A stretch of 64,000 nt of DNA from an uncultured Nitrososphaeraceae archaeon. Lineage in GTDB: Archaea; Thermoproteota; Nitrososphaeria; Nitrososphaerales; Nitrososphaeraceae. How positions within the stretch are numbered: the first letter of the stretch is position 1; every line of letters starts with the position of its first letter. The translations under genes were made by a program, and so were the position numbers. Of the stretch, positions 15,329-58,620 are shown piece by piece. The notes below the pieces were generated by a model. That model was given only the letters and a program-made list of their open reading frames with translations, was not told the origin of the DNA and ran no database searches. The stretch spans positions 64,001-128,000 of the forward strand of contig CAVSMN010000018.1 in NCBI GenBank assembly GCA_963729045.1. Direction: 5' to 3'.

Positions 15329-15373
15329 AGTTCTCATTCGTGGGGATCATGTTTCCTGCGGTATTAGGATTAT
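15329..15373 (+). repeat. Dispersed double-hairpin repeat, copy 1
   Basis: AGTTCTCATTCGTGGGGATCATGTTTCCTGCGGTATTAGGATTAT. Confidence 0.7.
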
Positions 15374-15562
15374 AATGCAAATATGGACATTTGATTTCAA
15401 AAAGAATTCGACAGGCTAGATAAGCTAGAAAAAAGTTACATCCTTACCTATTATTGCAATTGCAATTCTAGTTTATCTTGCAGAGATATCTACTACACAC
15501 TTATTGGAGGAAAGAGTCAATCTATTACATAAGAACGACCCCATATATCAGCATTACAATAA

Positions 15563-16648
15563 TTATGTGGTCACCTTATCATTAGAAACTGGAGACCGAC
15601 CTTTGCGAACCGTGTAGTAAATCGCTCCAAATCCTATACTAGTCACGATCACTTGGGCTATTTGACCAAAGTAGGGAATAGGAACTATGTACAAAAGATT
15701 GAGTATGACAAATCCGATTAAAAAAGAAGAAATATTGTTGATATCTCCTGATGACGGCTTTCGCCCCAATAACTCGAGGATTTTTTTTCCTATAGCAAAC
15801 GATACCATTAAAGATGAGAAGATTAATCCAATGAGAAGAACCAATAAACCAAAAACTGAGACTGGTATACCTACCACAGTGATTGCCGATAGTACTATTA
15901 CAACTACGAACAATATGATTAATAGAAATCCCACCACCGTGTTTTTTATTATGGATTTTTTCATAACCAACCGAACTGAATCAAACTGATTCGGTAGTAA
16001 CTTGACAAGTATGATACCTAAAATACCAAATCCTATTACAAACAAAATACCAAAAAGATTAAGCCATCCTTCTATATCCGGCATCATTGAGTCTGGGCTC
16101 CTTACCTCTAGGTCTCCGATAGTGCCATTGTTTTGGAAATTGTCAGTCATAGCTACCAGTTGTCCTGATATATTACCCTCATTGGTGATAGTTCCGCCTG
16201 CAACATACGCGTCCTTAGTTACCACAGAAGTTGGATCGAAATGTATGTTGTTAGCTGCTAATATTGCATTTGTTGATTTTCCCCCTAAATCTATCATACT
16301 TCCAGCAGCTACAATTTTTCCTGAAACATCTGCATTCACCGTTACTTGTCGCCCTGCAGCAAGAAGGTCACCCTCTATCGGTGCATTGACATGAATAATA
16401 TTCGCAAATATTATCGCTCCTTTGACAGGGGCGTCAATATTTACCGTTTCTCCAAAGATTACCACCTCATCTTGTATAGGTTCTTGTATTGAAATCTGAT
16501 TTCCCGAAATAACTTGCAAAGCAAAGGCGGTATCTGGCATAACTAGTGGTACTAAAACTAGAGCTGTTATACAGAAGATGAAGAAATATTTTATTCTAGC
16601 AGAAACGCTATTTCGCAACATTTTATTAGATAACCAATACCTAGTCAA
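15563..16648 (-). CDS. Membrane protein with an extracellular beta-helix-like repeat region and C-terminal TM helices
   Basis: Signal-like N-terminus; repeats GDLLAAGRQVTVNADVSGKIVAAG / DAYVAGG; about five C-terminal TMs. Confidence 0.8.
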   Translation of the reverse strand: MTRYWLSNKMLRNSVSARIKYFFIFCITALVLVPLVMPDTAFALQVISGNQISIQEPIQDEVVIFGETVNIDAPVKGAIIFANIIHVNAPIEGDLLAAGRQVTVNADVSGKIVAAGSMIDLGGKSTNAILAANNIHFDPTSVVTKDAYVAGGTITNEGNISGQLVAMTDNFQNNGTIGDLEVRSPDSMMPDIEGWLNLFGILFVIGFGILGIILVKLLPNQFDSVRLVMKKSIIKNTVVGFLLIILFVVVIVLSAITVVGIPVSVFGLLVLLIGLIFSSLMVSFAIGKKILELLGRKPSSGDINNISSFLIGFVILNLLYIVPIPYFGQIAQVIVTSIGFGAIYYTVRKGRSPVSNDKVTT

Positions 16649-17019
16649 ATTTAAATTTATAGGGCAAACATTTTATCTATTACCATCATCCTTTACATTT
16701 ATTAATACTTTAATTTAAGCAAAAATATGACTTTACCCATTTAATCGATATTTGAGAATATTTATGGATGCATAAACAAACAACCTCAAGTCAAATAAGA
16801 GAATAAAGTCGTTGAACAGCACTATGGACAGAGAATAAAACTTATAGTCAGAATAATTTTGTAATAGAAGAAGGCCTCTATTACAATATCCACAGTCTCT
16901 GGGCATTGTTGCATAACCCCATTACCTTCGCCTTGTGTCTATATCAACCACGCACCGGTTGTTTTTTCTGTTATTTTAATGAATTAATCGGTAGAGATAA
17001 GATATAATATCTTCGAGTC

Positions 17020-17080
17020 CAGTCATGACCAAAGAGCTGCTCTGCGGGGGATTAAGTTCCTAGTGGCACTAGGTTCGAAT
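17020..17080 (+). repeat. Dispersed double-hairpin repeat, copy 2 (with 5' extension)
   Basis: CAGTCATGACCAAAGAGCTGCTCTGCGGGGGATTAAGTTCCTAGTGGCACTAGGTTCGAAT. Confidence 0.75.
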
Positions 17081-17245
17081 AAAGATGGATTGTACATACT
17101 CGCCCTAATCATGCTAAATCTTTTTTAATTAGGTTTTGTCATTTGGTCTAAAGATTTGCGATTATGTTGTGAATTTCAAACTACCATTTCCATCTCTGAG
17201 CATGATACAGAACTGAAATTTATAATACCGTCATGATAATATAAA

Positions 17246-20719: not shown

Positions 20720-20978
20720 TTACTTATATCATATGAAGCCAATGAATTATTAGTATATAAATAAAATAATTTCAAGCTTTATCATATGTGAATTATTTTT
20801 CATATCTCCAAAGTCAAAAACCACCTCCTAATAGTCAAATTTATCGGAGTCCAGTTGCGGTTAGATCTCTAGGGTCGGGTTCTATCACAAGGAAAAAATC
20901 ATGATCCTAGGATGATCATATTTAAGAGTCCAAAATTATGAGTGTCACTAAATACTTTCATGATATACTTTATAATAT

Positions 20979-22809: not shown

Positions 22810-22924
22810 CGAAAAAGGACTACAGGCCGCCGACAAAGAAACACGTAAGAGAGTATCAAGAGAAGACGATAAATCTTGATTAAATTTCCTGCCAATCTTT
22901 TATTTCGATACTATCAATAATATC

Positions 22925-22970
22925 AGTTCTAATCCGTGCGGATTAAGTTCCATGTGGTAGTATGTTCTAG
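22925..22970 (+). repeat. Dispersed double-hairpin repeat, copy 3
   Basis: AGTTCTAATCCGTGCGGATTAAGTTCCATGTGGTAGTATGTTCTAG. Confidence 0.8.
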
Positions 22971-23201
22971 TACGACTTAATAGTAATCAATTTCAAAGTG
23001 GATTAGTTTACCATGTATATGAAATTCCCAGACCAAGTGCTCTGTTACAATATCCGTTTCATTAATGGTAAAAACATCTAGTATTTCTCCTGCTGGTATC
23101 TTAATTACTCCAAAGCCAATATATGGTAGAATGGGTTAAAATTCATATCCGGCATAAGAATCTTGTTGGAATAGATATTTGGGCATGATGATAGAAAGAC
23201 C

Positions 23202-31118: not shown

Positions 31119-31123
31119 CTAAT

Positions 31124-31435: not shown

Positions 31436-31521
31436 TATCCATCTTATTTTTGATTAAGCATCTAATAGATACTCTAGATAATAAGTTTGACATATTTAGT
31501 ATTGATAATCAAATTCAGATT

Positions 31522-31556
31522 AGAGCAGTTCTCATCCATGAGTATTGAGTTCCTTG
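31522..31556 (+). repeat. Dispersed repeat, copy 4 (3'-truncated)
   Basis: AGAGCAGTTCTCATCCATGAGTATTGAGTTCCTTG. Confidence 0.7.
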
Positions 31557-31636
31557 CAATAACAGAATCATGTATAAGCAATTTACAACTGATTTGACAT
31601 TAGGTTTTGGTCTAAAGTTTTAACCATGGCAAGTTA

Positions 31637-37392: not shown

Positions 37393-37937
37393 TTAGAAGA
37401 TCCTGTGTTCCCTTTGCCGAATTTCATTGACAAACTCAAAACATTCTTGCAAATTAGGATTAGTCATGAGTAATAAGACATCAAGGGCGCCTAATAAGTA
37501 TACACGGGATCAAATGTATAGTTGAAATTCATATTGCTTTGTAAGAAAAGAACGATAATAGGCAGAAAGTTGTTCCAGTTGGAGATAAATTGATAGATAT
37601 TGGAATTTTCTTCTTAACCAACATCACAATTAAATCATGTGGATATGATTCAAGATTAAACTCATTCTCTATATATAGTAACATGTGACTTTATAGAATT
37701 AAGATATATACAATACGATAAGACAATGACTGATTCAAAAAAAGAGGTCGAGTTGAATTAAGGTAATATACACACATTTTATCTCTGAAGAGAGACCAAA
37801 CTTTCTTATAAATCAAATACTTGAATTTTTCAAGTAATTATTGTTTGTTAATCCCGAAGTAGAATCTATAGCATATGGAACTAGTCTAGTTATGTTTTAT
37901 ATATTGATTAAAATATATCGTTTTACCTATTAGTAAC

Positions 37938-37983
37938 AGATCTTATCCTTAGAGATAGAGTTCCTAGTGGTAATTTGGCTCAT
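37938..37983 (+). repeat. Dispersed repeat, copy 5 (degenerate)
   Basis: AGATCTTATCCTTAGAGATAGAGTTCCTAGTGGTAATTTGGCTCAT. Confidence 0.55.
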
Positions 37984-38065
37984 GGTTATAGTAGTTCTTA
38001 TTATTAAGGTGTATTATTAAGTAGAACTTTTTCTTCACGCCCATCCCCACGCACATGTTTATGTG

Positions 38066-40939: not shown

Positions 40940-41006
40940 CAACCATTGTCGTTCCATACTTTTCGCATTTACCTTTACTATTTTTATTTGCCTTAGCTTA
41001 ATACGA

Positions 41007-41414: not shown

Positions 41415-41592
41415 AGGATCATCGTTTTAGACTATGAAACATATAATTAGGTAACAAAAAAGGATGATTTGGTTTTAGTCTAGAACCTAAACCTAGAATA
41501 GATAGCGGAAATATGAATAATAAAAGTGAAGCAGTAAAGAAGCAAATATTTTCTTTTTTTATAAAGTCAGTATGAAATAACTCTTTTCTAGC

Positions 41593-41617
41593 TGAGCCTT
41601 AAATATTTTAAGGCTCA
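41593..41617. other. Perfect 11-bp inverted repeat
   Basis: TGAGCCTTAAA-TAT-TTTAAGGCTCA. Confidence 0.6.
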
Positions 41618-41901
41618 ATTAATTCAAATTAATTGGTTAAGATAAGTAATCTAAATGATAATGAATTATTGTTTAAGACTATAATAATAGTTAAGAAATG
41701 TATTTGATTAATTTATCTCAGATGAATTTTCTAAAAGAACTTTATCCTCATAGATTAAAGGATTACGTTTTCTATTTTGTTATCTAAAGTTTTAACCTAA
41801 ATCAACGATATCATATTTAAAAACTTTTGCTACCAATCATTGAATATAGTTTGTATTCAATTCATAATATTTGTTAAATATCTTTACCATAAAACATAAT
41901 T

Positions 41902-43719
41902 ATGACTGAAAATAATAGCAGTCAGACTAATTATTCTTATGATGTCATAGTTATTGGTGGTGGTTCTGCCGGTCTAAGAGCTGCAATTGAGGCTCACGAC
42001 AATGGATCAGTTGTTCTTCTAATTAGCAAGAGTAAACAAGGTGATCCTCATACGGTGCTTGCAAGAGGAGGAATTAATGCTGCACTTGGAATCATGGACC
42101 CCAAAGATAACTGGATGATACATGCTTCTGATACCTTAATAGAAGGCGAACATATTGCTGATTATGAGAGAGTTGAAGTTCTTTGCAAGAGTGCTCCTGA
42201 TGCTATCCGTGAATTAGTCAACTGGGGCGCTAGATTTCATAGGGAGCAAGATGGGAGACTAACACAACGTTTCTTTGGAGCTCATACTTACAGAAGAACT
42301 GTTTTTTATGAAGATTGGACTGGTAATGAGATAGTCCGTGTCCTGATGAAACAGGTTAATGAGAGAAAGATCGATATCATAGATAATATCTATATTACAA
42401 AGTTGCTACTAAAAGATAACATAGAAAACGTAGATGGATACTCAAATTCTTCACCATCCAAAATAATAGGAGCAATTGGCATTGACATCAAGGAAAAACA
42501 ACTTGTGAAATTTAATTGTAAATCTTTAATACTTGCTTCAGGAGGATATACAAGAGTATATTCGATAAGCAGTTCGAGAAATTATGAACACTATGGTGAA
42601 GGAATTGAGCTGGCATATGAAGCAGGAGTAGATTTAGTAGATATGGAAATGGTTCAATTTCACCCTACTGGTATGGTATGGCCTGAAAATGCATTAGGTA
42701 CGCTTGCTACTGAAGCTATCCGAGGAGAAGGAGGCATTTTACTGAATTCAAATAATGAACGATTTATGAAAAAATATTATCCCGAAAGGATGGAACTAGG
42801 TCCTCGAGATAAAGTTGCACGAGCCATTTATAACGAGATCGCAGAAGGTAGAGGTACTGTCCATAAAGGAGTTTGGTTAGACGTCACTCATCTTCCCTTG
42901 AAAAAAATATTAGATAGATTGCCCACCATGTATAAACAATTTAAGGATATAGCCGGAGTCGATATTTCTAAGGAGAAAATGGAAGTTGGTCCTACTGCAC
43001 ATTATTCTATGGGCGGATTATTAGTAGATATAAATTGCAAAACAAAAGTTGAGGGTTTATTCGCAGCTGGCGAAGTAATAAGTCAGATTCATGGTGCCAA
43101 TAGGCTAGGTGGTAACAGTCTACTTGATACATTGGTTTTTGGAAAAATAGCGGGGAGGGAAGCCTCGATTTTTGCAAAGCAGTTACAAACCCCACTTGAA
43201 GACACTTCACTAGAGTCGGAAGTAGATATGGATATACAAAAGTTTGAAAAAGATCTTTTTGTGGTATTGGATGAGCCATTAAGTTTTCGCAAAGAAATAC
43301 AAGATCTAATGAATCAAGTTGCAGGAATAGTAAGAAGTGCAACAAATCTTCAAAAAGGGTTAGATAAAATTCTAACTTTAAAGGATAGGTTTTATTCTCA
43401 GATTCGAATACTACCGAAAAATGAATTAAATAATGATAACCACATCAAGAATCTCATTATAACTTTGGAAGTCAGGTCATCTTTGGTTGTATGTGAGGCG
43501 ATAATAAAGAGTGCCTTTATGCGAAAAGAAAGCAGAGGTGCGCACTTTCGTTCTGATTTTCCAACTATCAATAACGATGTGTGGCATGTTAATATCTATT
43601 GTACCAAGGAAGATGGAAAAATGACACTATATAAACAAAATGTTAAAGAAGTAAAAGGAACTCTGAAGGAAGTGATAAGAGACCATTTAAAACCCATTCA
43701 TAATAACGAGTCTGAATGA
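41902..43719 (+). CDS. SdhA/FrdA/NadB-family flavoprotein, with no Fe-S or anchor subunit nearby
   Basis: GGGSAG, HTVLARGGINA, QFHPTG, TEAIRGEGG, HYSMGG, HGANRLGGNSL, ESRGAH. Confidence 0.9.
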   Translation: MTENNSSQTNYSYDVIVIGGGSAGLRAAIEAHDNGSVVLLISKSKQGDPHTVLARGGINAALGIMDPKDNWMIHASDTLIEGEHIADYERVEVLCKSAPDAIRELVNWGARFHREQDGRLTQRFFGAHTYRRTVFYEDWTGNEIVRVLMKQVNERKIDIIDNIYITKLLLKDNIENVDGYSNSSPSKIIGAIGIDIKEKQLVKFNCKSLILASGGYTRVYSISSSRNYEHYGEGIELAYEAGVDLVDMEMVQFHPTGMVWPENALGTLATEAIRGEGGILLNSNNERFMKKYYPERMELGPRDKVARAIYNEIAEGRGTVHKGVWLDVTHLPLKKILDRLPTMYKQFKDIAGVDISKEKMEVGPTAHYSMGGLLVDINCKTKVEGLFAAGEVISQIHGANRLGGNSLLDTLVFGKIAGREASIFAKQLQTPLEDTSLESEVDMDIQKFEKDLFVVLDEPLSFRKEIQDLMNQVAGIVRSATNLQKGLDKILTLKDRFYSQIRILPKNELNNDNHIKNLIITLEVRSSLVVCEAIIKSAFMRKESRGAHFRSDFPTINNDVWHVNIYCTKEDGKMTLYKQNVKEVKGTLKEVIRDHLKPIHNNESE

Positions 43720-43921
43720 GGAGTAACAAACATCATTACAAGTATTATGACATATCAACATATCAACATATCAATCTTGTTACTGCTGCAGTCTATCTCC
43801 TAATAATGATTGGATGAATTACAATTAGTATTTCTATTGTGGACATTATGCTAAAAAAACCCTCCTCCCTTGACCATAAAATAGATAATTACAGTGTTAC
43901 AATTACATGACCCGGCTTGAT

Positions 43922-44507
43922 TCAATTGGTAACATTGAATGAGTTATCAGATGTACTTTCGGGAAATTTTTCTAAAGTCCACTGTTGACCCAAACCATTA
44001 TTTTGTGTCCAAGTTTGTATAAAAGCACCGGGAAGAGGGTTTGATGCTCGAATTTCAAGAACCATGCCATTAAGTTTACTCTTTATAAATCCATCACCAG
44101 TAATTGTCCACTGTTGACCCAAACCATTATTTTGTGTCCAAGTTTGTATATAAGCACCGGGACGTGGATCTGATCCTCGAATTTCAAGAACCATGCCATT
44201 AAGTTTACTCTTTATAAATCCATCACCAGTAATTGTCCACTGTTGACCCAAACCATTATTTTGTGTCCAAGTTTGTATAAAGGCACCGGGACGTGGATTC
44301 TGATCCTGGAATATCAAGAACCAAGCCATTAAGTTTACTCTTTATGAAATAAGATGATTCACTGTATGCATAGTCTAAATGATTTGAAGATAACAAGAGT
44401 ATACTGACTATTCCTAAACCTAAAGATACTGCGGCAATTAAATGATAATTGTATGTATTTCCATTATTTTTTGTCATAATGATTAATACATTATGATATC
44501 GGAACAT
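43922..44507 (-). pseudogene. Secreted ricin-B (QxW) lectin with three 129-bp repeats, +1 frameshift near 44298
   Basis: Signal peptide in ORF 44256..44507 joins repeats FIKSKLNGMVLEI..QTWTQNNGLGQQW; GTGGATTCTG vs GTGGATCTG in the next repeat unit. Confidence 0.85.
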
Positions 44508-44898
44508 ATAAACAAATTATTCATAGGAACCAAGTTAACTATGTTTAACCAATATGGTATTTCTAACGAAATCCTTTGATTCAATTATGAAGTTTGATTT
44601 GATTTGTATTGAAAAGACATATCTTTATCTAAATTATGCTTTGTATTTACCATATCACACCAGGTCATCAGTATTTAAAAACTTGTTAAATAATCTCTAT
44701 TTTACAATAATGCAAATCAATCCTAGTAGTACAAGTATCAATTCTAGAGAATATAGACTGGAGGTAGAGGTTATAAAGTATAAATGAATCGAAAGTACAC
44801 TTTATCATATAACAATTTTCATGTAAATCTTATTCTAAGGTATTGATCGCATTTTATTATACTTATATTATGTCCTTCACATTGGACCTAAAAAAATT

Positions 44899-44952
44899 CA
44901 GTCATGAAGTAAACCCATGGGATCAAAGTTCCTAGTGGCACCAAGGTTCTAT
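44899..44952 (+). repeat. Dispersed double-hairpin repeat, copy 6
   Basis: CAGTCATGAAGTAAACCCATGGGATCAAAGTTCCTAGTGGCACCAAGGTTCTAT. Confidence 0.75.
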
Positions 44953-45213
44953 CATACACTAGGCCGATATTTTCCAAATATCATAATTAAAATATTGTCG
45001 ATAAAACATTAGACAATTCAAGATGGTATCAAACTGTGTCTTACCTTTTCAACTTTTGATTATTGTCAATACTTTCTTTTCTTTTTGAGCATAGTATTTG
45101 ACACTAAATCTATATCATGTTCAAAAGACTAAACCTTAAATACTTTTTTCACATTGATTCTAACATGAGGAAACAAAATTTAGGATATTGTTTTACTAAG
45201 AGGGACAAATACC

Positions 45214-45513
45214 ATGGTTAAAGTAGGGCTTTATGTTAAATTGGAAGCAAAACTAGGCAAAGAAGATGAAGTAGAACAGTTCCTCAAAGATGGATTACCA
45301 ATAGTTCAGGAAGAGCCAGATACTGTGGCATGGTTTGCAATTCGCCTAGGACCATCCACTTTTGGAATATTTGATGTTTTTCCAGACGAATCTGGTCGAC
45401 AAGCTCATCTTTCAGGACAAATTGCTGCTGCCCTAATGGAAAAATCTTCGGATCTACTTGCAAGCCCCCCATCTATTGAGAAGATAGATATCATTGCATC
45501 TAAACTTCCATAG
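45214..45513 (+). CDS. Antibiotic biosynthesis monooxygenase (ABM) family protein
   Basis: LEAK.GKEDEVEQFL..EEP.TVAWFA..FGIFD.F.DE.GRQAHL. Confidence 0.88.
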   Translation: MVKVGLYVKLEAKLGKEDEVEQFLKDGLPIVQEEPDTVAWFAIRLGPSTFGIFDVFPDESGRQAHLSGQIAAALMEKSSDLLASPPSIEKIDIIASKLP

Positions 45514-45617
45514 CTGGATCGCTTCTGGATCCAGTTGGGAACCTGTAGGAGAACACTTATTAAAATATCTATTGTTGACTCATTTTTTTAGATGCGGTCT
45601 CGATAATGTAATTTGAT

Positions 45618-45651
45618 TAGAACCTCAATTCGGTCATGCAACGCAGTTCTC
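45618..45651 (+). repeat. 5' fragment of the dispersed repeat
   Basis: TAGAACCTCAATTCGGTCATGCAACGCAGTTCTC; TAGAACC is the reverse complement of the 3' end GGTTCTA. Confidence 0.45.
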
Positions 45652-45950
45652 TTATGAATTAGCAATTCACGGATGGGCCGGTTTTCTTTCTTTTTCTTCT
45701 TCCATAATTACAGTTACGACAATTACTTTCTTAATTTGATCTAATCTGATATAAAATATGCCCTAAGCCGATCAAATCAAATTGCAAATGCAAAACAAAT
45801 TGAATTTGATGATGAATATAAGAATATTTAACATTCACATTATCCGGATTAGGTCATTTTTATGTAATATATTTTCTCTTACTGATTTTCCCTGTACCTT
45901 ACGATTTAACTTTAAATCCTACATAAGGGAATATATAAAGATCATAAAAT

Positions 45951-46952
45951 ATGCGAAAAGGTATTATCTATTGCTCCATGCTTATTTTCTTTTCAATTTC
46001 CTGTATGATTTTTGTAATTTGTGCAGATGCACAATCGCCAACTAACAATAGTAAGGACATCAGTGGTATTTACTTGTCAGACAAGCAGACTATTTATCAT
46101 GTTAAACAAACAAATAATACAGTTTGGATATTAGGGACTGATGCTCCAAATGTTGAGTCCAGCACCATTGCAAACATTTTTAGTGGAACGTTAGAAAATA
46201 ACATTAGCAAGATAACTGGAAAATGGATAGATTCTCCATTATCAAATAATACTAACAGTGGGAATGTTGATTTTAATATTTTGATGAACGACTCAAATAA
46301 TAATATAACTTTAACTAAAATTCCATCAACATCAGGATCAAGCAACGTTTATCCGGCAACTATATTGGCCAAATATGATCCCATTCTTCATGGTCCATTA
46401 ACAATTTATGTGTCAATGGAAAATTTATTGATCAATGAAGCACGTGCTCCTACTTCCGATATTTTATACGTTGGTATAAGCGGTCAAAAGAATAATGACA
46501 ATCCTTTGACCGCAACTAAATACTTGGGAGCTAGAGGAGATGGTGCAAACATAACAACAAACCTAAGAATTGGTCCATTTACATTTAATAATGAAAACGA
46601 TTCCCTTAAAGTAGAAATTTTGGGACTAAATAAGGCAGACAGTACAACATCATTTACATTAATCAACCTTAGAGATACTCTTATTCAACTAATGGAACCA
46701 TCATACAATATTTCTGATCTGGTTCAGGCGACAAACGTCATTAGGTCCTTATCTCCAGGATTAATTCCAGGAGGATGCAACGGTTTGGTATTCATAGATG
46801 AGATACCTCTGTCATCTGAATTTTTAAGAAATTCAACTGCCCTTAACGGAGAACACATTATAGAAAAAACTTATCCTGGAACCACAAGTCCACCCGGATG
46901 TGGACCACCTTCACAGTATATCGTTAAACTATCCATAACTACTCATAGATAA
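45951..46952 (+). CDS. Secreted hypothetical protein
   Basis: Signal peptide, Asn/Ser-rich, C-terminal GC..GCG. Confidence 0.75.
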   Translation: MRKGIIYCSMLIFFSISCMIFVICADAQSPTNNSKDISGIYLSDKQTIYHVKQTNNTVWILGTDAPNVESSTIANIFSGTLENNISKITGKWIDSPLSNNTNSGNVDFNILMNDSNNNITLTKIPSTSGSSNVYPATILAKYDPILHGPLTIYVSMENLLINEARAPTSDILYVGISGQKNNDNPLTATKYLGARGDGANITTNLRIGPFTFNNENDSLKVEILGLNKADSTTSFTLINLRDTLIQLMEPSYNISDLVQATNVIRSLSPGLIPGGCNGLVFIDEIPLSSEFLRNSTALNGEHIIEKTYPGTTSPPGCGPPSQYIVKLSITTHR

Positions 46953-46959
46953 TTCTACA

Positions 46960-47005
46960 AGTTCTCATCCATGAGGATTAAGTTCCCTGTGGTAGCAGGG
47001 TTCTT
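46960..47005 (+). repeat. Dispersed double-hairpin repeat, copy 7 (best preserved)
   Basis: AGTTCTCATCCATGAGGATTAAGTTCCCTGTGGTAGCAGGGTTCTT, starting 8 nt after a stop codon. Confidence 0.85.
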
Positions 47006-48034
47006 ATGTTTTATATTGTGATTAATTATTTAGTGATTAACAAGAAGCAGAATGGTTTATTCTTGATACTCTTTGTTATCATTGGATTATATTCAGTACA
47101 TTTACTAGGTGAATTTTCAAGTGCAAAAGGAAGTGTAACTGGCGGTAATCAAGATAAAGTCTTTGTGATGTACGCTGGATCTCTTGTAAAGATATTTGAA
47201 GATGTACTTGGACCTGCATTTCAAAGCGAATCTGGATATCCATACGTCGGGGAAGGGAAGGGGTCTGTTCAAGTTTCAAATTTGATTAAGGATGGATTTA
47301 GAACACCAGATGTATTTGTTAGTGCTGGAACGGTACCAATGACAAGGCTAATGAATACTACTCCTCCCCTAGTAGATTGGCTTTTAAAGTTTGGATCAGC
47401 CGAAATTGTGATTGCTTACTCGCCCAATAGTCCACACTTTGGTGATTTAGAAAAAGCAAGAATGGGTGAAATTCCATGGTATGAAGTTGTTTCTCAGGAT
47501 GGTTTCAAATTTGGTAGAACAGATCCTGAGTTGGATCCAAAAGGATACTATGGAATTATTACCGCTGAATTAGCAAATTCCTATTACAATGATTCATCTA
47601 TCAAGAATAGAATATTTGGAGAGGATAGAAATCCCAAACAGATATTTCCCGAAGAAACGCTTAAGACAGTGTTAGAAACGGGTTCATTGGATGCAGTCAT
47701 AGCATACAAACATGAGGCCATATCAAGAGATCTTCCCTACATCACTTTACCCAACGAGATCAATCTTGGTGATCCCACATATTCTGATTTTTACAAACAT
47801 GCAAATTACACTTTGCAAGCTGATCAAAAAACAATTTACGGGGAACCAGTTGACTTTTCAATCACTATTCCAAAGACTGTTAAGAATATGGACGGTGCAA
47901 TCTCGTTTGTAAATTTTGTAATTTCCAAAAATGGTTCACAGTTACTAGAAAGTCAGGGACTTAATCCGATCAACATAACATCTGAAGGAAATACCGATGA
48001 TATTCCTTTGTCTATAAAAGAGGCAATTTCGTAG
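47006..48034 (+). CDS. Molybdate/tungstate-binding protein (WtpA/ModA-like)
   Basis: YAGSL, GSV, PDVFVSA, GRTDPELDPKGY, LPNEINLG. Confidence 0.85.
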   Translation: MFYIVINYLVINKKQNGLFLILFVIIGLYSVHLLGEFSSAKGSVTGGNQDKVFVMYAGSLVKIFEDVLGPAFQSESGYPYVGEGKGSVQVSNLIKDGFRTPDVFVSAGTVPMTRLMNTTPPLVDWLLKFGSAEIVIAYSPNSPHFGDLEKARMGEIPWYEVVSQDGFKFGRTDPELDPKGYYGIITAELANSYYNDSSIKNRIFGEDRNPKQIFPEETLKTVLETGSLDAVIAYKHEAISRDLPYITLPNEINLGDPTYSDFYKHANYTLQADQKTIYGEPVDFSITIPKTVKNMDGAISFVNFVISKNGSQLLESQGLNPINITSEGNTDDIPLSIKEAIS

Positions 48035-48067
48035 GAATGCAGTCTTATCCCTTGTTGAGCAAATTTG

Positions 48068-48126
48068 TATGACCGGGTAGCTGTCCTCATCCGTGGGGAA
48101 TAAGTCCCTAGTGGTATTATGGTTAT
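48068..48126 (+). repeat. Dispersed double-hairpin repeat, copy 8
   Basis: TATGACCGGGTAGCTGTCCTCATCCGTGGGGAATAAGTCCCTAGTGGTATTATGGTTAT. Confidence 0.75.
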
Positions 48127-48193
48127 GTTTTAATGCAATTTAATATCAAATCTTATCCACCCTTATTCACTATTAACACGGAATGATGGCCTA

Positions 48194-48217
48194 ATTCTCA
48201 TTCTAGAGAATGAGAAT
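48194..48217. promoter_or_regulatory. Perfect 11-2-11 palindrome upstream of the cupredoxin-like gene
   Basis: ATTCTCATTCT-AG-AGAATGAGAAT followed by TATA-like TTTTATGTA (48221). Confidence 0.65.
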
Positions 48218-48251
48218 AGCTTTTATGTAACTTCAAACTCCCTTTTTATTA

Positions 48252-49072
48252 ATGGATAATAAAAATAATTTATCGAATATACATCTACTTTTAGCTATTG
48301 CTGGTATGTTGGTTTTATCCGGACCCATCTCGTATGTTTTCTCCAATAATGTATTTGCGCAAACAAATTCTACTGATAGTGTTGATGTACAGCCAAATAT
48401 TAATGCAGAAAGCATTTTTAACACCAAAACAATGACGTTAGGCAATAATGTAAAAAATCTTGTTATCCTCATTCCTAATGAAGGTCACCATGCTGCTGGT
48501 GAAGACAATGAAGCCAGATTTTTGGATCAACACTTTGTACCAGAAAATGCTGTAATTAGCACTGGAACTACCGTACAATGGTTTAACGGTGATGCAGGTC
48601 ACGAACGTACAATAGACGTGAAGGACATTGACGGTAGCACTACATTTTTTAACACTGGAGAGATAGTTGATAGTCAAGCATCAAATCCATATTACATTTA
48701 GTAATCCAGGTGTGTATAATTATGAAGCAGAAGGTGACCCAGGTGTAACAATGACTGGTTCTGTAACAGTAGGTAATATCCAATCATCAGTAACGCCGTC
48801 TAGCACAGCCATATCCACAAGTTCAAACTCTAGCAATATTGATACGGTGGGAATTTTGATGGTACCAACGCAAAATATTGATGACTACATCCAACAGATA
48901 ACAGGTGCAGGGATTACTGTTGACAATACATACGACTTTAAAGACTTGAGAGGTGGACAAGAAGGAACAGGTGATACACAAACATTAATTGTATGGACCA
49001 CAGGTGGTAAAGATTTAGGTGAAACACTTTCATTCTTAAGTGGGCTTATCCTCTGAATTACCATATAGTTAA
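48252..49072 (+). pseudogene. Secreted cupredoxin-fold-like protein with two +1 frameshifts (near 48690 and 49043)
   Basis: FVPENAVI..GTTVQWFNGD..H; ITFSNPGVYNY..MTGSVTV; restored C-terminus LSSELPYS*. Confidence 0.75.
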
Positions 49073-49158
49073 TAATTAACTATTTTTTATCAGGTACTTT
49101 TGATACCTCGGATTATTTGACAATTTACAAAATCATAATATGCCAATCTGGTCAAGTC

Positions 49159-49197
49159 GTCATGATTGGGATTAAGTTCCAAGTGGTACAGGGTTAG
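49159..49197 (+). repeat. Dispersed repeat, copy 9 (internal deletion)
   Basis: GTCATGATTGGGATTAAGTTCCAAGTGGTACAGGGTTAG. Confidence 0.7.
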
Positions 49198-49700
49198 GAT
49201 TGTTCTAATCATCCAGTTTGAAAGACAAAGATATCCCATAATGATTAGTACATACACCAACATGTTTAATAACAAAATCCTAGTTGAGAAGTATTAAAGG
49301 CATCAGTATGATGCGGCGCCGTCAACACCATGATTAGTTTTCAAGTCTCATGCTTTTGTGCCTATGACCAATGGAACAAGTAGTTGCGAAGCTATTGCAT
49401 TTGACGATAGACACTTATCACATGAATGTAGCCCTCAATACTATTTCCCTAGGACATTGTAAGAAATTCGTAACTAAAGTTAATAAACGATATACCTAAT
49501 TCATTAGAGAATTATGAAATAATCATTTATTCAATTATTCAAGAATATTTCATCTTTTTTGACAATAATGATACTTAGATTAGAGTTTAGACCAAACTCA
49601 TCGATTTGGCTAAATAATGAATAACAAATAGATCGATGTTAACAAGTTAATAAAGTATGAGCGAAACTTATGCTATCAAATTAATAGTTGCCAAGACCAT

Positions 49701-49725
49701 GGTCCTCATCTGTGCGGATTAGTTC
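49701..49725 (+). repeat. Dispersed repeat, copy 10 (first hairpin only)
   Basis: GGTCCTCATCTGTGCGGATTAGTTC. Confidence 0.6.
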
Positions 49726-50195
49726 TCAATAAACCTTGTGGAATTTAATCTGAAATCCAAAAGTTAAAGATTGTTAATCAGAATCAAAAATTATTTTATT
49801 AGATGTGAATCAATCTGCTTTTGTTGAGAAAGAATCAGAGCCATAATAAAGGCGAAATGTCTGGAATGACAGGAATCTGAATTCTCGCCTAAATAAAATG
49901 TCAGGAATAACCTTATGTCATGCTTTTTCTTAAATCATGTTATAATTTGAAATCCGCAATAGAAAGAGAAAATGTCCGACCTTTCATTCTCTTTTCAAAA
50001 TCAATGGATAACAAAACAACCCGAGAAGATTACACTTTTTGAATTTTCTACATGATCTGTCATTAATAATGATAAAGAGTGATTCTAATAATAGTTGAGT
50101 TGAATAGTTATTGTTGCCCAAATGGTCTTGCCTGACTTATAAAACTCTGAGCCTATGCAAAGGCCATTGAGAAAGTCTTTATTGAAATTGTCTCT

Positions 50196-51323
50196 TTACT
50201 TGTTATCTTTGTATAGGTCCTTCAAAACTTCTACCATGTAATGTTTCATCTCATTATAAGAATCTTCCAGCTCTTGTGTTCTCCTTTTTACTTCTCTTCT
50301 TAGAATAATATTCCATCGTCTGAGTAAAATTACTAAGATAGTAACAGCAATAATACTGGCAACAATAGATAAAGAAACGATTCCTGTTCTTTGTTCGGAA
50401 AGAGCATTGTCAATCTTTGAATATATTTCTGACGTGGGAGTCACTATTTGAATAAAAAATGAAGATTGATTGTTTATATATGCAGGATACTGAGTGGTTA
50501 ATCTTTCACCACGACCATAATCATAAACTGCGAAACCTGATTTGCCGTTTAATAAATTCCGAGTCGCATCGTTCAAGATTTTATTGTGATTGATAAATTC
50601 TTGTGTATAATTGCCAAAAAAGTTTTGTCCCACAAGCGTCTCGCTTGCGCCATTAGCTAGCATGAAACCGTTTTTATCGTATACTACCAAAAACTTCGAA
50701 CTAATATCTTGAATATTTCCATAGTGTGCAAAAAATGGTATTGTAGGTATCGATGTTACAATCATCCCCATATATTGACCCGTATCTTGATTCAGGATCG
50801 GATAAGATATGAATTCTCTGAGTATCTGTTGTCTCTCAAAATCGCCATTAGAGAAGACGGGCAAGTGGCCACTTGTTGTCTGCTTTACCCAGTCTCTAAA
50901 TGAGAAATCTTCGCCGAGAACAAATTCTGATGGTTGGGTAGATATAGTATTTACCATAACATTGTTCTTGTCCAAAATAAACAGGCTATCTATCGTAAGA
51001 TTGTGTTTATTATAAGCGTCATCCAAAAGCTTTGTAGTTTTGTCGTCTCCCAATTCTCCTAGCTGTATATAGTGCGAATTTGTTAAACCATAGAGCATTG
51101 ACATAACTAAGTTGATATCTGAGCCTATATGTCGAGCAATATCATTTGTAGCTTGTATCTGAAGCTCTTTTTGTTGTTCAAATACAGTCTTTTTTAGGTC
51201 CGCAGCAGTCATATTTTGGATATAAAATAATAAGCCATTTGAGCATAAGATAATTGAAATAAGTGAGATGATACCTATCTCTCTTTCTTTTCCCAAAAAT
51301 ATATCCATAATAAGTACCTGCAA
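50196..51323 (-). CDS. Two-TM Cache-domain sensor with no kinase or other output domain
   Basis: TM - IDSLFILDKN..DFSFRDW..ISYPI..VYDKNG - TM - short coiled coil EVKRRTQEL. Confidence 0.8.
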   Translation of the reverse strand: MQVLIMDIFLGKEREIGIISLISIILCSNGLLFYIQNMTAADLKKTVFEQQKELQIQATNDIARHIGSDINLVMSMLYGLTNSHYIQLGELGDDKTTKLLDDAYNKHNLTIDSLFILDKNNVMVNTISTQPSEFVLGEDFSFRDWVKQTTSGHLPVFSNGDFERQQILREFISYPILNQDTGQYMGMIVTSIPTIPFFAHYGNIQDISSKFLVVYDKNGFMLANGASETLVGQNFFGNYTQEFINHNKILNDATRNLLNGKSGFAVYDYGRGERLTTQYPAYINNQSSFFIQIVTPTSEIYSKIDNALSEQRTGIVSLSIVASIIAVTILVILLRRWNIILRREVKRRTQELEDSYNEMKHYMVEVLKDLYKDNK

Positions 51324-51447: not shown

Positions 51448-52125
51448 GGCGCTGTTAACTTAGGCGTTTAGCACTTCCTTGTTGTGTATTTTTACAAAAA
51501 GATTCAACCAGTTTTTGACATGATTTAGTTTACACTTCTCTTTACTACATGGAAAGTAATCGTCAAATCCTTCAGTTCGATCCTTGAAATACTGCATTGT
51601 TCTTTCTATCAGGCTTTTCTCTAATGAGGAATGAAAATGGTGTTTTAGTTTTAGGAATCTACAAGCTATTGGGTACCATGTTCCCAATCTGTAGATATAG
51701 AATGTTTTCCATGAATCTTGACCAAACCTGAGAGAAACCTTTCTGCTATTAGCATGTTCCTCTTCTTAGATATGGATAGTGCGAGAATCTGCCTATTTTC
51801 TGGCTCGATTGCTGCCCATAACCAGGTGTATTCAGAGCCGACTTTTATTAATGTCTCATCAATGATGTATTCTGATATTTTTGTTCTTCTTGTTGAAAAC
51901 CTTTCGAGGTTTATACTTTTAAATCCAATTCCAAATTGCAACGTGACTTCTATTGATAACATGTAAAAAGGACAATGCTTTGACAGAATTTCTGAGCGAT
52001 AAACCAAGAAAGTACAAATAAAGACCATGGTAAATATGCTCTGAAGATATTCTCTTTCTTTTACTTAACATAACAGAAATAAAGCATCTTTAAGCTAAAG
52101 ATTTATAGTTAAGTTAACAGGATCC
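51448..52125 (-). mobile_element. IS6-family insertion sequence with inactivated transposase
   Basis: Inverted repeats CTGTTAACTTA (51452) / TAAGTTAACAG (52110) with GG..CC termini; flanking TGTGATc / TGTGATt duplication; IIDETLIKV, LWAAIEP, STD, IERTMQYFKDRTE; nonsense and frameshift lesions; ATG at 52071. Confidence 0.9.
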
Positions 52126-52161
52126 TGTGATTGATTTTCCTTTGTATTCTTTACAATACTT

Positions 52162-56443: not shown

Positions 56444-56968
56444 ATTAACTTTTTACATCTCCGTAAAGTTATTTTAGACAATTTCCGTTCTAGTTGATAA
56501 ACGTTTGAAGATTTTTCGGATTGGCTTTGTTGTATTAACGATGGGCAATTTTATTATTTTTTTTGATTTTATCATACAATTATATGTTATAACATGTTAA
56601 TATATGTTACGCAGCGTAATACATGTATTTACTATGTTGCAATTCCTGTGTCACTATTTTCATAAAATTAAATCTGGGTAAAATTAATTAGTTATTTTTT
56701 GTTTCTTAATACAAAAAGTAATTTGATACCTTTCTATCTCTGAACGCCAACTATCAAGGAAATCATAAGAGAAGAGGATCTCGCCTCTTCGAACCAATGA
56801 GTGGTTATAAAAAGGCCGGTCAACTATTGAAAATGTAGACCAAAATCTAAGCCAAATATGTTGAGTAATGCGACAGAGCACTAATGATAGCTAAAACTGA
56901 TAGATAGCAATCATCAAATACAATTGATAGAAATAGACAAATTTAGAGAAGGCGAAATCTAAACTGAT

Positions 56969-57250
56969 ATGACAGCCATGAGTGCTATTCATGTTGTTTC
57001 CATTAGAGATTTTGTTTCAGCGGATTTAGATATTAAAAAAAGTGCGATGACTTTTGTTGAAAAAGAGGTTGAGTATGCCCCTTCAGATGATATTATAATT
57101 GATTTTTCTAATGTCAAATCAATTACTCCCGAATTTGCCCACCAATATTTGATGAGTAAGCGCAAAATTAAAAAGGAAATTCACGAAGTGAATCTACCTT
57201 CACATGTGGAATCGATAATCAACAAAGCACAGAAATCTATCAATAAGTAA
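56969..57250 (+). CDS. STAS-like (DUF4325-type) small protein
   Basis: IIIDFSNVKSITPEFAHQY..EVN. Confidence 0.75.
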   Translation: MTAMSAIHVVSIRDFVSADLDIKKSAMTFVEKEVEYAPSDDIIIDFSNVKSITPEFAHQYLMSKRKIKKEIHEVNLPSHVESIINKAQKSINK

Positions 57251-57816
57251 TATATTCTCTCTTGGCACTTAGATATTTTTAATATTATTAGATTACATGA
57301 ATTTCTAATTTACTCGTACATTTGAGGATTCTTTACATTAGGCTTAAAATCTTTTTATAATTGATATATTCATGACTCTCATTGCAAGCAATAACAATTT
57401 GGACGCTTAAATAAAAGTTACAAAGAAGCAATGCTTAAGCTCAATGACAAGGCTTCTTCACAATTTAAACAAAATATGGATAATATGAGAGTAAAGAATC
57501 CTCAAACTGAAGATGAACAGATTTCAACCAGGCCCGGTGGGATGTTATTTAAAAATGAATGAAATCCTTCTAATTTAAAAACAGGTATCCTATGATTTTG
57601 ATAATTGATCAATTATCTCATGATATAGGTGAGCATATTCATCAAAAAACATAGACTCGGTGGGCTTAATTTCAGTATGGCATAAAGGGACAGCAGTTTT
57701 GGCACACATCCTACTTCTTATTTTGGTAATTTGAGTTATAAATTGAGAGTTGTTATCATATATCTACGCGTACTAACCCTTTAGAGCATATGGAAGATAA
57801 AATGAGGGGACAGTCC

Positions 57817-58072
57817 GTTTCAATCCTTGTTCTATTGGAATAGTCTTTCATAGCGCATGGTTCGTTATTATCCATTTTCTAATCCCATATCCCTAATTTT
57901 ACCAATGATAATGCTATTGAAAATAATCCAATATAGAGAAAAATGACAAACCAGATAGCACCATCTACTTCTTTTAGTCTCTTCATTTTATTCATTTCAT
58001 CTGCTCCTTTTGTATATCACCATTAAATATATCAAGTTTCAATCCTTGTTCTATTGGAATATTCTTTCAGAG
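57817..58072 (-). CRISPR. Two CRISPR-type 37-bp repeats 182 nt apart; no cas genes in the window
   Basis: GTTTCAATCCTTGTTCTATTGGAATAGTCTTTCATAG (57817) and GTTTCAATCCTTGTTCTATTGGAATATTCTTTCAGAG (58036), 35/37 identical; the minus strand ends ATTGAAAC. Confidence 0.65.
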
Positions 58073-58599
58073 AGCCTAAGTAGGCGTACAATTGAGCACA
58101 GTCTACATCATTTTTTACCATTATCCTCAGATGCGTCATCGGTATTAGCTATTTATGAGACCCTATTTAAAGATCCAACGCTCCATATTTTCCTATAACA
58201 ACAACTAACGCACTTATTGCCAAAGTTTTGATAGAAGTCATTTAATAATAATTTGATTGACAAGATGCTCTTATTGTCACAAAGGACTTAACTCTAGTTA
58301 TATCAGAGTCTGCAAAAGAATCTTTTAGGAAAGTAGGTCTAGCACAATTAGAAAATTTATTTTTTCAACTTAATAATTATGAAAATGATGATCAGATCCT
58401 AGATACAAAATATGTTACTGCTGACACTGATGAGCTGATTTTAGAAGCTTAATTTATCTAAATAAAAAATATATTTTTTATTTCTCTTGTTTACTGTATT
58501 TTCCGAAACTCCTTAATAATACAATCTGCACGTTTGTATTTTAATTCCATTTACAAAACTTTTGATAAGCGATATTTCGTCAATTCCGCAAATATCATA

Positions 58600-58620
58600 A
58601 GTGGTAGTAGGGTTCTAATA
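58600..58620 (+). repeat. Dispersed repeat, copy 11 (3' part only)
   Basis: AGTGGTAGTAGGGTTCTAATA. Confidence 0.5.

Follow-up and report, generated by a model that had tools for sequence, protein, structure and literature searches.

The window analysed here is a stretch of 64,000 nucleotides from contig C18 of an uncultured Nitrososphaeraceae genome (G000), and it carries a short dispersed repeat with all of its copies located between crude ORF calls (Table 1), in agreement with the intergenic position given in an earlier sequence-only reading of this DNA. Eight of the eleven copies listed in that reading were recovered as strong plus-strand matches (nhmmer E 2e-6 to 5e-13), whereas the copy at 49168 is partial, the one at 58600 is borderline, and the one at 49701, which resembles the 5' half of the motif only, was absent from the nhmmer matches at E<0.1. 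A 5' extension (CAGTCATGA..) ascribed to several copies does exist, and that of the 44907 copy shares homology with the arm next to the integrase gene in an intact element from the related genome G031 (local alignment, z = 8.0 against shuffles). The sequence TAGAACC at 45618 had been taken for an inverted end of the repeat, but nhmmer found no minus-strand copy in the window. A repeat search returned families with 7 and 5 copies, and the first 27 nt of the consensus gave three matches (with up to three mismatches) versus 0.00 expected.

Table 1. Copies of the repeat in the window, with positions counted from the first letter of the window.
Feature	Position	Strand	nhmmer E	R1 E
att-type copy (core and element arm)	15320..15386	+	1.2e-9	5.6e-13
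Copy with 5' extension (CCAGTCATGACC..), mosaic junction	17025..17091	+	1.8e-6	
Repeat copy	22916..22981	+	1.9e-10	3.0e-14
Repeat copy, only the 5' flank kept in G032	31518..31584	+	2e-6	
Repeat copy	37929..37995	+	1.5e-7	1.6e-10
Copy retaining an upstream arm (..GGACCTAAAAAAATTCAGTCATGAAG..) that resembles the arm on the integrase side of intact elements	44860..44963	+	3e-7	
Copy at cassette-type indel	46951..47017	+	5e-13	
Repeat copy	48073..48139	+	4.9e-11	
Partial copy (core and part of arm)	49166..49194	+	1.1e-3	
3'-arm fragment of 23 nt, borderline	58600..58622	+	0.055	

A scan with an iterated nhmmer profile, as the sequence-only reading had proposed, found further copies in this genome (29 in total at E<1e-4, confined to four of the 22 contigs) and in relatives from the same genus, labelled Ca. 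Nitrosocosmicus, to which the repeat family is restricted. The reported plus-strand orientation holds for every copy in the window, but not for the contig as a whole, as nine minus-strand copies are located at 0.7-30.5 kb of the same contig. The closest complete genome, G032, was used for locus comparison with G000, and the part of C18 with minus-strand copies corresponds to inverted segments of what is one plus-strand array in G032; the strand switch is therefore a rearrangement. More widely, copies are co-oriented on 25 of the 26 contigs having at least two of the 150 listed matches. The two opposed groups of copies in C18, together with a loose likeness of the motif to the ORB of this genome's oriC (AGTTCC-AGTGG..GGGTT), could be read as polar replication-linked protein sites, such as a Ter-like fork trap, KOPS-like sites or dispersed ORB-like Orc1/Cdc6 sites, but we regard this as extremely improbable: the strand switch is a rearrangement, and the ORB likeness lacks significance, with scores as high in 57 and 430 of 2000 shuffled sequences and no nhmmer match in the origin. 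The replication-strand bias suggested previously did not hold up either, since in G032, with cdc6 at 563.6 kb, plus-strand copies lie on either side of this gene and minus-strand copies on both replichores, and in the complete genomes orientation showed no agreement with the replichores around cdc6/oriC, with GC skew being uninformative.

As a short, dispersed, intergenic, multi-copy repeat with local strand polarity, the family has the general appearance of a non-autonomous transposable element, either a MITE or a REP/IS200/IS605-type hairpin element whose strand bias would follow from replication. We consider this very unlikely, as all 29 copies are confined to the four contigs mentioned above, orientation is mixed inside each replichore of G032, and the Y1_Tnp transposase domain (PF01797) was found in none of five genomes (6 of 14 control genomes were positive); Y2_Tnp was likewise found in none of the five, although no control was positive for this domain either. 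With regard to a MITE, there was no motif-only presence or absence among the G000 and G032 loci compared, and positional orthologues were either kept or had decayed in place, while a REP or IS200/IS605 element would call for a Y1 transposase and a stable hairpin, neither of which was found. The GTTC sub-repeats at the motif ends are direct rather than inverted in the motif alignment, and the two stems with a compensatory change, put forward from single copies, did not survive comparison with shuffled sequences (80.1% paired cells versus 78.5%, a level attained by 45 of 500 shuffles). An alternative stem register paired worse than the first, the covariation score of 0.198 compares with 0.173 in shuffles and was reached by 57 of the 500, RNAalifold predicted no pairs in a consensus of the copies, and folding was no better than for shuffled sequences and like that of flanking controls (z -0.2 for DNA and -0.6 for RNA). 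The same results bear on a structured small RNA or cis-regulatory RNA element, in favour of which single copies allow short GC-rich stems to be drawn and the plus-strand RNA fold is slightly below that of shuffles (the z of -0.6); with covariation not above shuffles, no consensus structure and no Rfam match at gathering thresholds, we consider this proposal of the sequence-only reading very unlikely. Orientation is also independent of the neighbouring genes (the gene on the 3' side of 22 C18 copies is convergent in 11 cases and co-directional in 11), and in one orthologous case decay is faster in the motif than around it, the positional orthologue of the 48073 copy in G032 being more decayed than its own flanks.

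The anatomy of the motif points elsewhere, and each copy is very probably an att junction in two parts, with a 5' core and a 3' element-side arm. The core (..CCGTGGGGATT) corresponds to the 3' end of an intron-bearing tRNA in antisense. It reads ..GCGGGCCCGTGGGGATT in intact elements, extends over at least CCGTGGGGATT in most copies, and is identical to the tRNA acceptor and T-stem 3' end. The 3' part of the motif (AAGTTCC..GGGTTCTAATAC) belongs to the element side, and this arm, AAGTTCC-TAGTGGTAGTAGGGTTCTAATAC, stands where the tRNA body would be, and the variable 5' part would be the end of the preceding element or an older flank. Among 67 copies, 63-94% agree with the antisense tRNA at the last 10 positions ahead of the junction, with the 11-nt anchor used biasing offsets -11..-1 upward, and 0-10% agree at the next five. 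The tRNA itself was recognised with Rfam RF00005 (57.8, 57.8 and 46.4 bits) and by ARAGORN, its exons are identical across six genomes, and from the anticodon loop CTTTTAA we take it to be a probable tRNA-Lys(UUU). Four genomes have ..GGGCCTAAAAAAGGATTCAGTTATGAAGCGGGCCCGTGGGGATT in common in the DNA that precedes their orthologous integrase-like genes on the upstream side, followed by the 3' part of the motif in G031 and G018 and by the antisense tRNA body in G042 and G007.

The intact tRNA is present at the end of the main array in five relatives, antisense to the copies and with its 3' end facing them, at 0.9 kb (G012), 1.6 kb (G018), 10.5 kb (G042), 15.2 kb (G032) and 38 kb (G015) from the nearest copy, and in G007 it was placed at the array end by alignment only. 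The motif score drops with distance from the tRNA in three of four genomes (rho -0.48, -0.70 and -0.53). Counting against the att reading, there is no such gradient in G042 (rho +0.12), and in G000 the tRNA is located on contig C9, 3 kb from the contig start, with the C18 array on a separate contig. In G031 there was no tRNA within 5 kb of the contig end.

This last genome does contain the one clear case of an intact element: on its contig C9, direct plus-strand copies at L140:366-416 and 12481-12532 flank a segment of 12.1 kb. Besides ORFans, the segment encodes a PrimPol protein of 878 aa and an integrase-like protein of 417 aa, with the gene for the latter lying 99 nt away from one of the copies. 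The 417-aa protein is tyrosine-recombinase-like; the sequence-only reading had suggested looking for a transposase or recombinase gene bounded by the same ends. Integrase-like genes are also present in the tRNA-proximal segments of G042, G007 and G032. The assignment of this family to the tyrosine recombinases is a distant one: the G031 protein had no Pfam match at E<=0.001 and the G032 protein matched PF00589 under the cut-off (E 7.5e-4), relatives with 52-63% identity scored above the PF00589 cut-off, the family matched the XerA-type model NF040815 with E 2e-6 and 2e-8, and a family profile had XerA (5hxy, E 0.46) as its sole match in the PDB. An alignment of 17 sequences has invariant R, K, HxxR, H and Y columns (R163, K191, H294, R297, H319 and Y327/Y339), which we read as the putative catalytic residues.

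The distribution of these genes fits the motif imperfectly. No integrase-like remnant was found in C18, where the modules in the window consist of ordinary metabolic genes, and a copy was present within 150 nt at only three of the 22 integrase-like loci examined; both observations count against the att reading, as does the finding that the number of integrase-family members does not follow the number of motifs. There are 38 family matches in G044 and eight in G003, both of which have no motif, and no family match in G017 and G006, yet these have 11 and 10 motifs. None of the 145 ORFs in the array region of G032 gave an integrase match at E<=1e-5, and at a looser threshold one ORF, located beside the last copy, had a weak match to PF00589.

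Comparison of gene order between species shows a mosaic with breakpoints falling in the core. When 25 copies from C18 were compared with G032, both flanks were shared at two, only the 5' flank at four, only the 3' flank at six and neither flank at 13, so that ten of the 12 copies having any flank in common with a G032 copy share one side only. In the window, positional orthologues with both flanks kept were present for the copy at 15320 (G032:130,758) and the partial copy at 49166 (G032:171,656). The copy at 17025 is an example of the mosaic junctions: column 20 of the motif is the start of a downstream block including a gene for an XPD-like helicase, and in G032 this block lies at 295,757 behind a different copy. 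The exchange of flanks at the core is seen in a three-way recombinant: the copy at G032:43,279 combines two C18 copies and changes from one to the other inside the core. Of 108 intergenic ends of homology blocks, 11 lie in the motif versus 3.9 expected, a number reached in only 11 of 5000 simulations.

The copies are also associated with insertions and deletions. At the 46951 locus there are two copies in G032 and in G037 versus one in G000, and the pair in G032 flanks an insert of 1,847 nt with a PNPOx-family gene and has its junction at the 5' edge of the motif; G032 and G000 here show the occupied and the empty state of one site, with the junction in the repeat. At the 31518 locus G032 has 7.5 kb of extra DNA beginning about 15 nt past the 3' end of the motif, and at the 37929 locus an additional 2.5 kb lies upstream of the G032 copy at 160,299. 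On the opposing side, some copy-adjacent indels have no second copy bounding them, and the copy at 44860 lies within a 1.1-kb indel relative to G032 with ends that have no motifs.

Taken together, we hold it to be highly probable that the copies are att junctions resulting from site-specific integration of tyrosine-recombinase elements at the 3' end of one tRNA gene. Among the four possibilities offered by the sequence-only reading, a recombination site is the one that holds, based on the tRNA-derived core, the flanked element of G031 and the tRNA at array ends. Elements would insert at the tRNA 3' end in a fixed orientation, re-using the same site or any copy of the core, and such serial integration would give an array extending away from the tRNA 3' end, with the copies co-oriented because they stem from one site. 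The integrase and replication genes would then decay and leave the cargo genes, and recombination between cores would delete, duplicate, move or invert modules. We infer this order of events, the making of the junctions by the integrase, and the role of the arm as the P' arm of attP. Exchange at the core may likewise be catalysed by the recombinase, although homologous recombination between copies could be the source of the flank exchange instead of the integrase.

The spacing of the copies sits less easily with serial integration, as many inter-copy intervals (45 of them at 0.7-2.3 kb, mostly with one gene each) are small for decayed whole elements. They would suit an integron-like capture platform, in which single-gene modules with one att copy each are moved in trans by the tRNA-targeting integrase, and the array is a store of cassettes rather than a graveyard of elements. 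We see this as a possible but doubtful alternative. It would account for the single copy in G000 versus two copies around a 1.85-kb single-gene insert in G032, and for a motif-plus-gene unit present twice in one array of G012, at 97% identity and with 28 kb between the two. On the left this duplicated unit starts at the 5' edge of the motif, although at its other end it stops 310 nt short of the next copy. The module genes belong to small detoxification, stress and regulator families, which are typical of integron cassettes, and long synteny between species is absent. However, integron cassettes are mostly co-oriented, whereas the largest ORF is on the motif strand in 22 intervals and on the opposite strand in 23; an attC-type hairpin is absent, with DNA folding (z -0.21 and -0.23 for the two strands) as in the flanks; most arrays have no adjacent integrase; and no circles or active exchange were observed. 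In its active form, which we put forward tentatively, this would be a tRNA-anchored archaeal system with modules excised as circles and reinserted at any core copy by distant XerA-like integrases, and Nitrosocosmicus would then have a common, shufflable pool of accessory genes. If the single-gene modules do move on their own, the system would be analogous to integrons in function while consisting of other components.

Returning to serial integration at the tRNA gene, this reading would account for a hypervariable island of 100-200 kb in ammonia-oxidising archaea of a genus widespread in soil. Dozens of integrations, one after another at a single tRNA gene, would have produced it, with recombination at leftover sites shuffling accessory genes between species. 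The reading also supplies candidates for attB (the tRNA 3' end), for attP (arm, core, arm) and for the integrases, and we know of no site-specific integration tool for ammonia-oxidising archaea.

Integration into tRNA genes is well represented among thaumarchaeal elements, with 39 cases (57%) reported by Krupovic et al. 2019 (PMC6563490), who also describe tyrosine-recombinase elements building arrays via re-use of a site, and in whose main text the word Nitrosocosmicus does not occur. Like the attL/attR repeats and arrays of tRNA-targeting elements, the repeats described here have a core from a tRNA 3' end, are found as direct repeats around integrase-like and replication genes, and form arrays with an intact tRNA at one end and all copies co-oriented; in contrast to those elements, most modules have no remaining mobile-element genes, and the conserved repeat is about 55-60 nt including the arm, versus a median att length of 17 bp given for thaumarchaeal elements (Krupovic et al. 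2019, PMC6563490). The family is similar to REP/BIME-RAYT and IS200/IS605-derived palindrome elements in being short, intergenic, strand-polar and present many times per genome, and differs from these in having no Y1 transposase or stable hairpin and in the confinement of its copies to one island. Another related system is the accretion and mobilisation of ICEs and CIMEs in Streptococcus thermophilus, a bacterial system of few, non-autonomous, att-flanked modules: in both cases a tRNA-type site holds a tandem of att-flanked modules that have no recombinase and an element that carries the integrase, but here there are dozens of modules in an archaeal host and mobilisation is only putative. Clusters of attC sites without an integrase also exist (Ghaly et al. 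2022, PMC9668308), and as in the integron arrays treated there, co-oriented sites lie between small accessory genes, with cassette-sized indels bounded by sites and mostly no adjacent integrase. Integrons differ in the folded attC-type hairpin, which is absent here, and the genes in the present arrays are in either orientation, the recombinase-like proteins are not IntI but have a distant XerA-type match only, the site is tRNA-derived and the array is anchored at the tRNA. Overall, the structure is of a known kind but of unusual scale, with 20-50 detectable copies over about 90-200 kb and conservation throughout the genus setting it apart from known tRNA att arrays.

The first 27 nt of the consensus proposed in the sequence-only reading matched the window three times at ≤3 mismatches (0.00 expected), and a repeat search of the window recovered families of seven and five copies. 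A profile made from the copies and iterated once over the full assembly of this Nitrososphaeraceae archaeon (G000; 2.85 Mb, 22 contigs) found 29 copies at E<1e-4, of which 22 are on contig C18 (143 kb, which includes the window), three on C17 and two each on C1 and C13, with none on the remaining 18 contigs (2.44 Mb). Of the 11 positions originally claimed eight are strong copies, that at 49168 is a partial match (E 1.1e-3) and that at 58600 a 23-nt fragment (E 0.055), while 49701 was undetected at E<0.1; the intergenic, plus-strand placement is true of every copy in the window, with adjoining genes in both orientations. Further to the left, C18 0.7-30.5 kb contains nine copies, every one on the minus strand, and the iterated profile found none between 30.5 and 79.3 kb. 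The copies are clustered, forming arrays. Where at least two of the 150 matches listed fall on one contig, strand is uniform in 25 of 26 cases, C18 being the exception, and stray opposite-strand copies elsewhere on complete chromosomes are a minority. The end of C18 recurs at the starts of C1 and C13 (Table), and the copies on these two contigs sit within the stretches resembling it (92-96% identity); the MAG could have merged variants from different strains, or the triplication could be genuine.

The two stems with compensatory change suggested for the repeat did not survive comparison with shuffled sequences, as 80.1% of cells pair versus 78.5% in the shuffles, 45 of 500 shuffles being as high, and an alternative stem register paired worse than the first. 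RNAalifold gave no consensus structure for the copies, and neither as DNA (z -0.2) nor as RNA (z -0.6) did single strands fold better than shuffled sequence or flanking controls; these results speak against a structured element. There was no Rfam match at gathering thresholds and no tRNA gene within the window, and contigs from four soil metatranscriptome runs matched window 36000-50500 with short gene fragments only, such contigs being unable to reveal a 60-nt RNA. An IS200/IS605 or REP-type element was ruled out, no Y1 transposase being present in any of five genus members searched, among them the two with most copies; Y2_Tnp was likewise found in none of five genomes, but the control genomes also gave no match. 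Transposase genes of other types are present, namely an IS240-type DDE fragment in the window and three identical DDE_Tnp_1 genes (IS4/IS5-type) in the array, or run of copies, of G032, the closest complete genome. The window also contains a pair of 40-nt repeats starting GTTTCAATCC, which is CRISPR-repeat-like but only a pair, with one weak third match.

A replication-strand bias had also been proposed, and this is contradicted by G032, where the positions of plus- and minus-strand copies around cdc6 (563.6 kb) indicate that orientation is not set by replication direction (Table). Six contigs, C18 among them, gave noisy GC and AT skew with no usable switch. In G000 the cdc6 gene is adjoined by the likely oriC, where two ORB elements and a mini-ORB point the same way next to an AT-rich stretch; the motif was rejected as an ORB-like site, its likeness to these own-origin elements (C9:190.3 kb) not being significant. 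With regard to the strand switch on C18, G032:57-197 kb is collinear with the right arm together with the repeat-free centre (34.8-79.1 kb), while the left arm with its minus-strand copies is an inverted match to pieces of G032:189-243 kb, and on this alignment the switch is a rearrangement.

A covariance model built from 28 copies matched 17 of 18 further genomes of the same genus (Ca. Nitrosocosmicus in the record titles), and none of 12 genomes representing 12 other families of the order. In a larger genus sample the repeat was present in 30 of 34 genomes at E≤1e-6, those without a match at this threshold being G003, G036, G040 and G044. A 20-letter pattern scan of one genome per species (185,579 species) matched 90 stretches; among the 80 listed, 72 are titled Ca. 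Nitrosocosmicus, Nitrososphaeraceae, Nitrososphaerales or, in four cases, 'Nitrosopumilus sp.' MAGs, and eight are bacterial single matches. Viral contigs scanned with the pattern had no match.

Direct comparison of the motif with tRNAs yielded a Lys tRNA at E 0.32 only. We then took the 260 nt upstream of an integrase-like gene in G031 and aligned it with the equivalent sequence from G042 and G007, where the gene has orthologues (76-78% identity), and from G018, where there is a fragment. All four have ..GGGCCTAAAAAAGGATTCAGTTATGAAGCGGGCCCGTGGGGATT in common, followed on the 3' side by the 3' part of the motif in G031 and G018, and by the antisense tRNA body in G042 and G007; the core of the repeat is the 3' end of this tRNA. 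The tRNA exons are identical in six genomes, an intron follows the anticodon loop CTTTTAA, and the Rfam tRNA model gives 46-58 bits; we read the gene as Lys(UUU), with varying ARAGORN labels. In G012, G018, G042, G032 and G015 it closes the main array, running antisense to the copies and pointing its 3' end at them; when G012, G015 and G032 were compared by tblastx at their array ends, the one segment in common was situated beside it.

Table. Positions of repeat copies, the tRNA gene read as Lys(UUU) and other features of the arrays and their surroundings
Feature	Genome or contig	Position	Strand	Remarks
Copies	G032	131-324 kb, 609-669 kb, 1.83 Mb	+
Copies	G032	43-44 kb, 1.36-1.44 Mb, 2.72 Mb, 3.18 Mb	-
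tRNA	G012	1,175,527-1,175,618	-	nearest copy 0.9 kb
tRNA	G018:C7	121,588-121,679	+	nearest copy 1.6 kb
tRNA	G042:C2	1,456,830-1,456,923	-	nearest copy 10.5 kb; integrase-like gene (1,455,5xx-1,456,774) between tRNA and array
tRNA	G032	339,073-339,165	-	nearest copy 15.2 kb; integrase-like gene and SF3-helicase-like ORF between
tRNA	G015	514,164-514,255	+	nearest copy 38 kb; integrase-like gene between, 69 nt off the tRNA
tRNA	G000:C9	3,000-3,091	-	3 kb from contig start; 3' end toward gap
Likely oriC	G000:C9	190,280-190,560		adjoins cdc6
C18 end	G000:C18	137,871-142,963
C18 end, recurrence	G000:C1	1,659-6,755		96%
C18 end, recurrence	G000:C13	4,852-9,641		92-93%
~150-aa protein family	G000:C18	4812-5340, 23981-24433, 41285-41737, 53430-53882		outside window; also on C13
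Ku gene	window	611-1468	+
LigD gene	window	1588-4566	-	phosphoesterase, ligase and PrimPol domains
IS240-type DDE transposase fragment	window	51669-52028	-	PF13610, E 3.6e-7
40-nt repeat pair	window	57817-57856, 58036-58075		219 nt apart, 93% identity
40-nt repeat, weak third match	window	20769-20808
Three 129-nt tandem units	window	43977-44363		100, 95, 64% identity
Ricin-type lectin gene	window	43925-44329		overlapped by tandem units

Across 67 copies, the ten positions 5' of the junction correspond to the antisense tRNA in 63-94%, a figure inflated by the alignment anchor, the six positions farther 5' in 36-51%, and the five positions 3' of the junction in 0-10%. The element arms include two named classes, a AGTTCTCATCC type and a GGGCGCG type, and in the alignment of copies columns 11-15, 32-36 and 50-54 of the consensus form three direct GTTCY sub-repeats (spacing ~21 and 18 nt), which could be candidate arm-type binding sites for a recombinase. 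The 5' extension described earlier for several copies is, at window 44.9 kb, a homologue of the G031 element's integrase-proximal arm (z = 8). In three of four genomes, motif scores are lower the farther a copy lies from the tRNA (rho -0.48, -0.70 and -0.53, versus +0.12 in G042), which fits array growth at the tRNA end.

The G032 array has a 414-aa ORF with a weak PF00589 match 138 nt past its last copy, belonging to a family that is multi-copy across the genus. A recombinase gene bounded by the repeat had been suggested as a thing to look for, and contig C9 of G031 provides a candidate: the gene for a 417-aa member of this family (133,177-134,427) has a strong copy 99 nt away, with a second direct copy 12.1 kb off, and besides ORFans the segment so flanked encodes a pentapeptide-repeat protein and a PrimPol protein of 878 aa. 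The direct copies here flank an element that carries replication as well as integrase-like genes. The G032 protein falls below the PF00589 cut-off and family relatives above it, the G031 protein has no Pfam match at E≤0.001, and NF040815 (XerA-type) matches the family at E 2e-6 and 2e-8. The sole PDB match of the family profile was XerA (5hxy, E 0.46), and phmmer with one of the proteins found nothing in PDB at E≤1. An alignment of 17 sequences has no variation in the R, K, HxxR, H and Y columns. The family is assigned to the tyrosine recombinases as putative distant members. Serine recombinases number one per genome, distant from the arrays; none of the PF00589 matches in G012 and G015 adjoin arrays, and G000 has no PF00589 match. 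Against the integration model set out below, integrase-family and motif copy numbers are uncorrelated, and of 22 integrase-like loci inspected just three are within 150 nt of a copy. In G044, which has zero repeat copies, there are 38 matches to the family, many with stop codons, and its elements may use a different site.

Homology between pairs of the 67 copies, from five genomes, is commonly one-sided, with 3'-side blocks starting at motif columns -1 to 18 and 5'-side blocks stopping at columns 17 to 26. When 25 C18 copies were compared with G032 (88-89% nucleotide identity), two had both flanks in common with a G032 copy, four the 5' flank only, six the 3' flank only and 13 neither. Flanks are exchanged at the core, as at G032:43,279, where the 5' flank of C18:139,832 is joined to the 3' flank of C18:25,319 and the switch falls between ATCCAAGG and CTTGTGG. 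The single copy at window 46951-47017 corresponds to two copies in G032, with 1,847 nt of inserted DNA between them that includes a PNPOx-family gene. Ends of homology blocks fell in motif windows for 11 of 108 intergenic ends versus 3.9 expected (11 of 5000 simulations as high). Indels near window 44.9 kb (1.1 kb) and after window 31.5 kb (7.5 kb) lack two-copy boundaries, and the positional orthologue of the copy at window 48.1 kb has decayed more than its flanks.

The small accessory genes of the C18 and G032 arrays include those for glyoxalase, cupin, SnoaL, DUF1428, PhnB-like, RibD_C, GNAT, ABM and SRPBCC proteins, regulators and transporters, with no mobile-element hallmarks besides IS copies, and long synteny with the G015 and G012 arrays is absent, what they have in common being just shuffled single genes and multi-copy paralogues. 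A multi-copy family of ~150-aa proteins is scattered in the island, the variable region formed by arrays and accessory genes, here and in G015, G012 and G032; it matched no Pfam family, and transposases were rejected, the products being secreted proteins in which Q/S/N-rich repeats accompany a signal or anchor segment. The repeat-free core, with array arms on both sides, contains adjoining Ku and LigD genes, a complete NHEJ pair, with a 69%-identity orthologue in G015 and only a 29% ligase match in G012. Tandem units overlapping a lectin gene were also seen in the window (Table).

Of 45 inter-copy intervals 0.7-2.3 kb long, 22 have their largest ORF on the motif strand and 23 on the opposite strand. 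Such single-gene spacing is tight for what would be the remains of whole elements, which speaks against the att-junction model, and an integron-like reading of the island, although unlikely, keeps some room because many modules are single genes. Archaeal integrons, as described by Ghaly et al. 2022 (PMC9668308), are built on attC hairpins, whereas the motif has no such hairpins. On the likelier reading, that of att-type junctions, we infer that a tyrosine recombinase would insert elements at the tRNA 3' end, each leaving a core joined to an element arm, and that the same site, or any core copy, could be used again to give a co-oriented array. Mobile-element genes would then decay while cargo remains, and recombination between cores could delete, duplicate, move and invert modules.

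It is textbook knowledge that tyrosine-recombinase integration at tRNA genes generates direct repeats, and that repeated use of one site generates arrays. For thaumarchaeal elements, Krupovic et al. 2019 (PMC6563490) give a median att length of 17 bp and place 57% of integrations in tRNA genes, and they mention arrays from one re-used site; the word Nitrosocosmicus is absent from the main text of that paper. Literature searches on Nitrosocosmicus intergenic repeats and on thaumarchaeal integrated elements yielded no description of the repeat. The repeat family belongs to a known kind of system, and is unusual for such arrays both in its scale, with 20-50 copies over about 90-200 kb and genus-wide occurrence, and in its abundance of single-gene modules.
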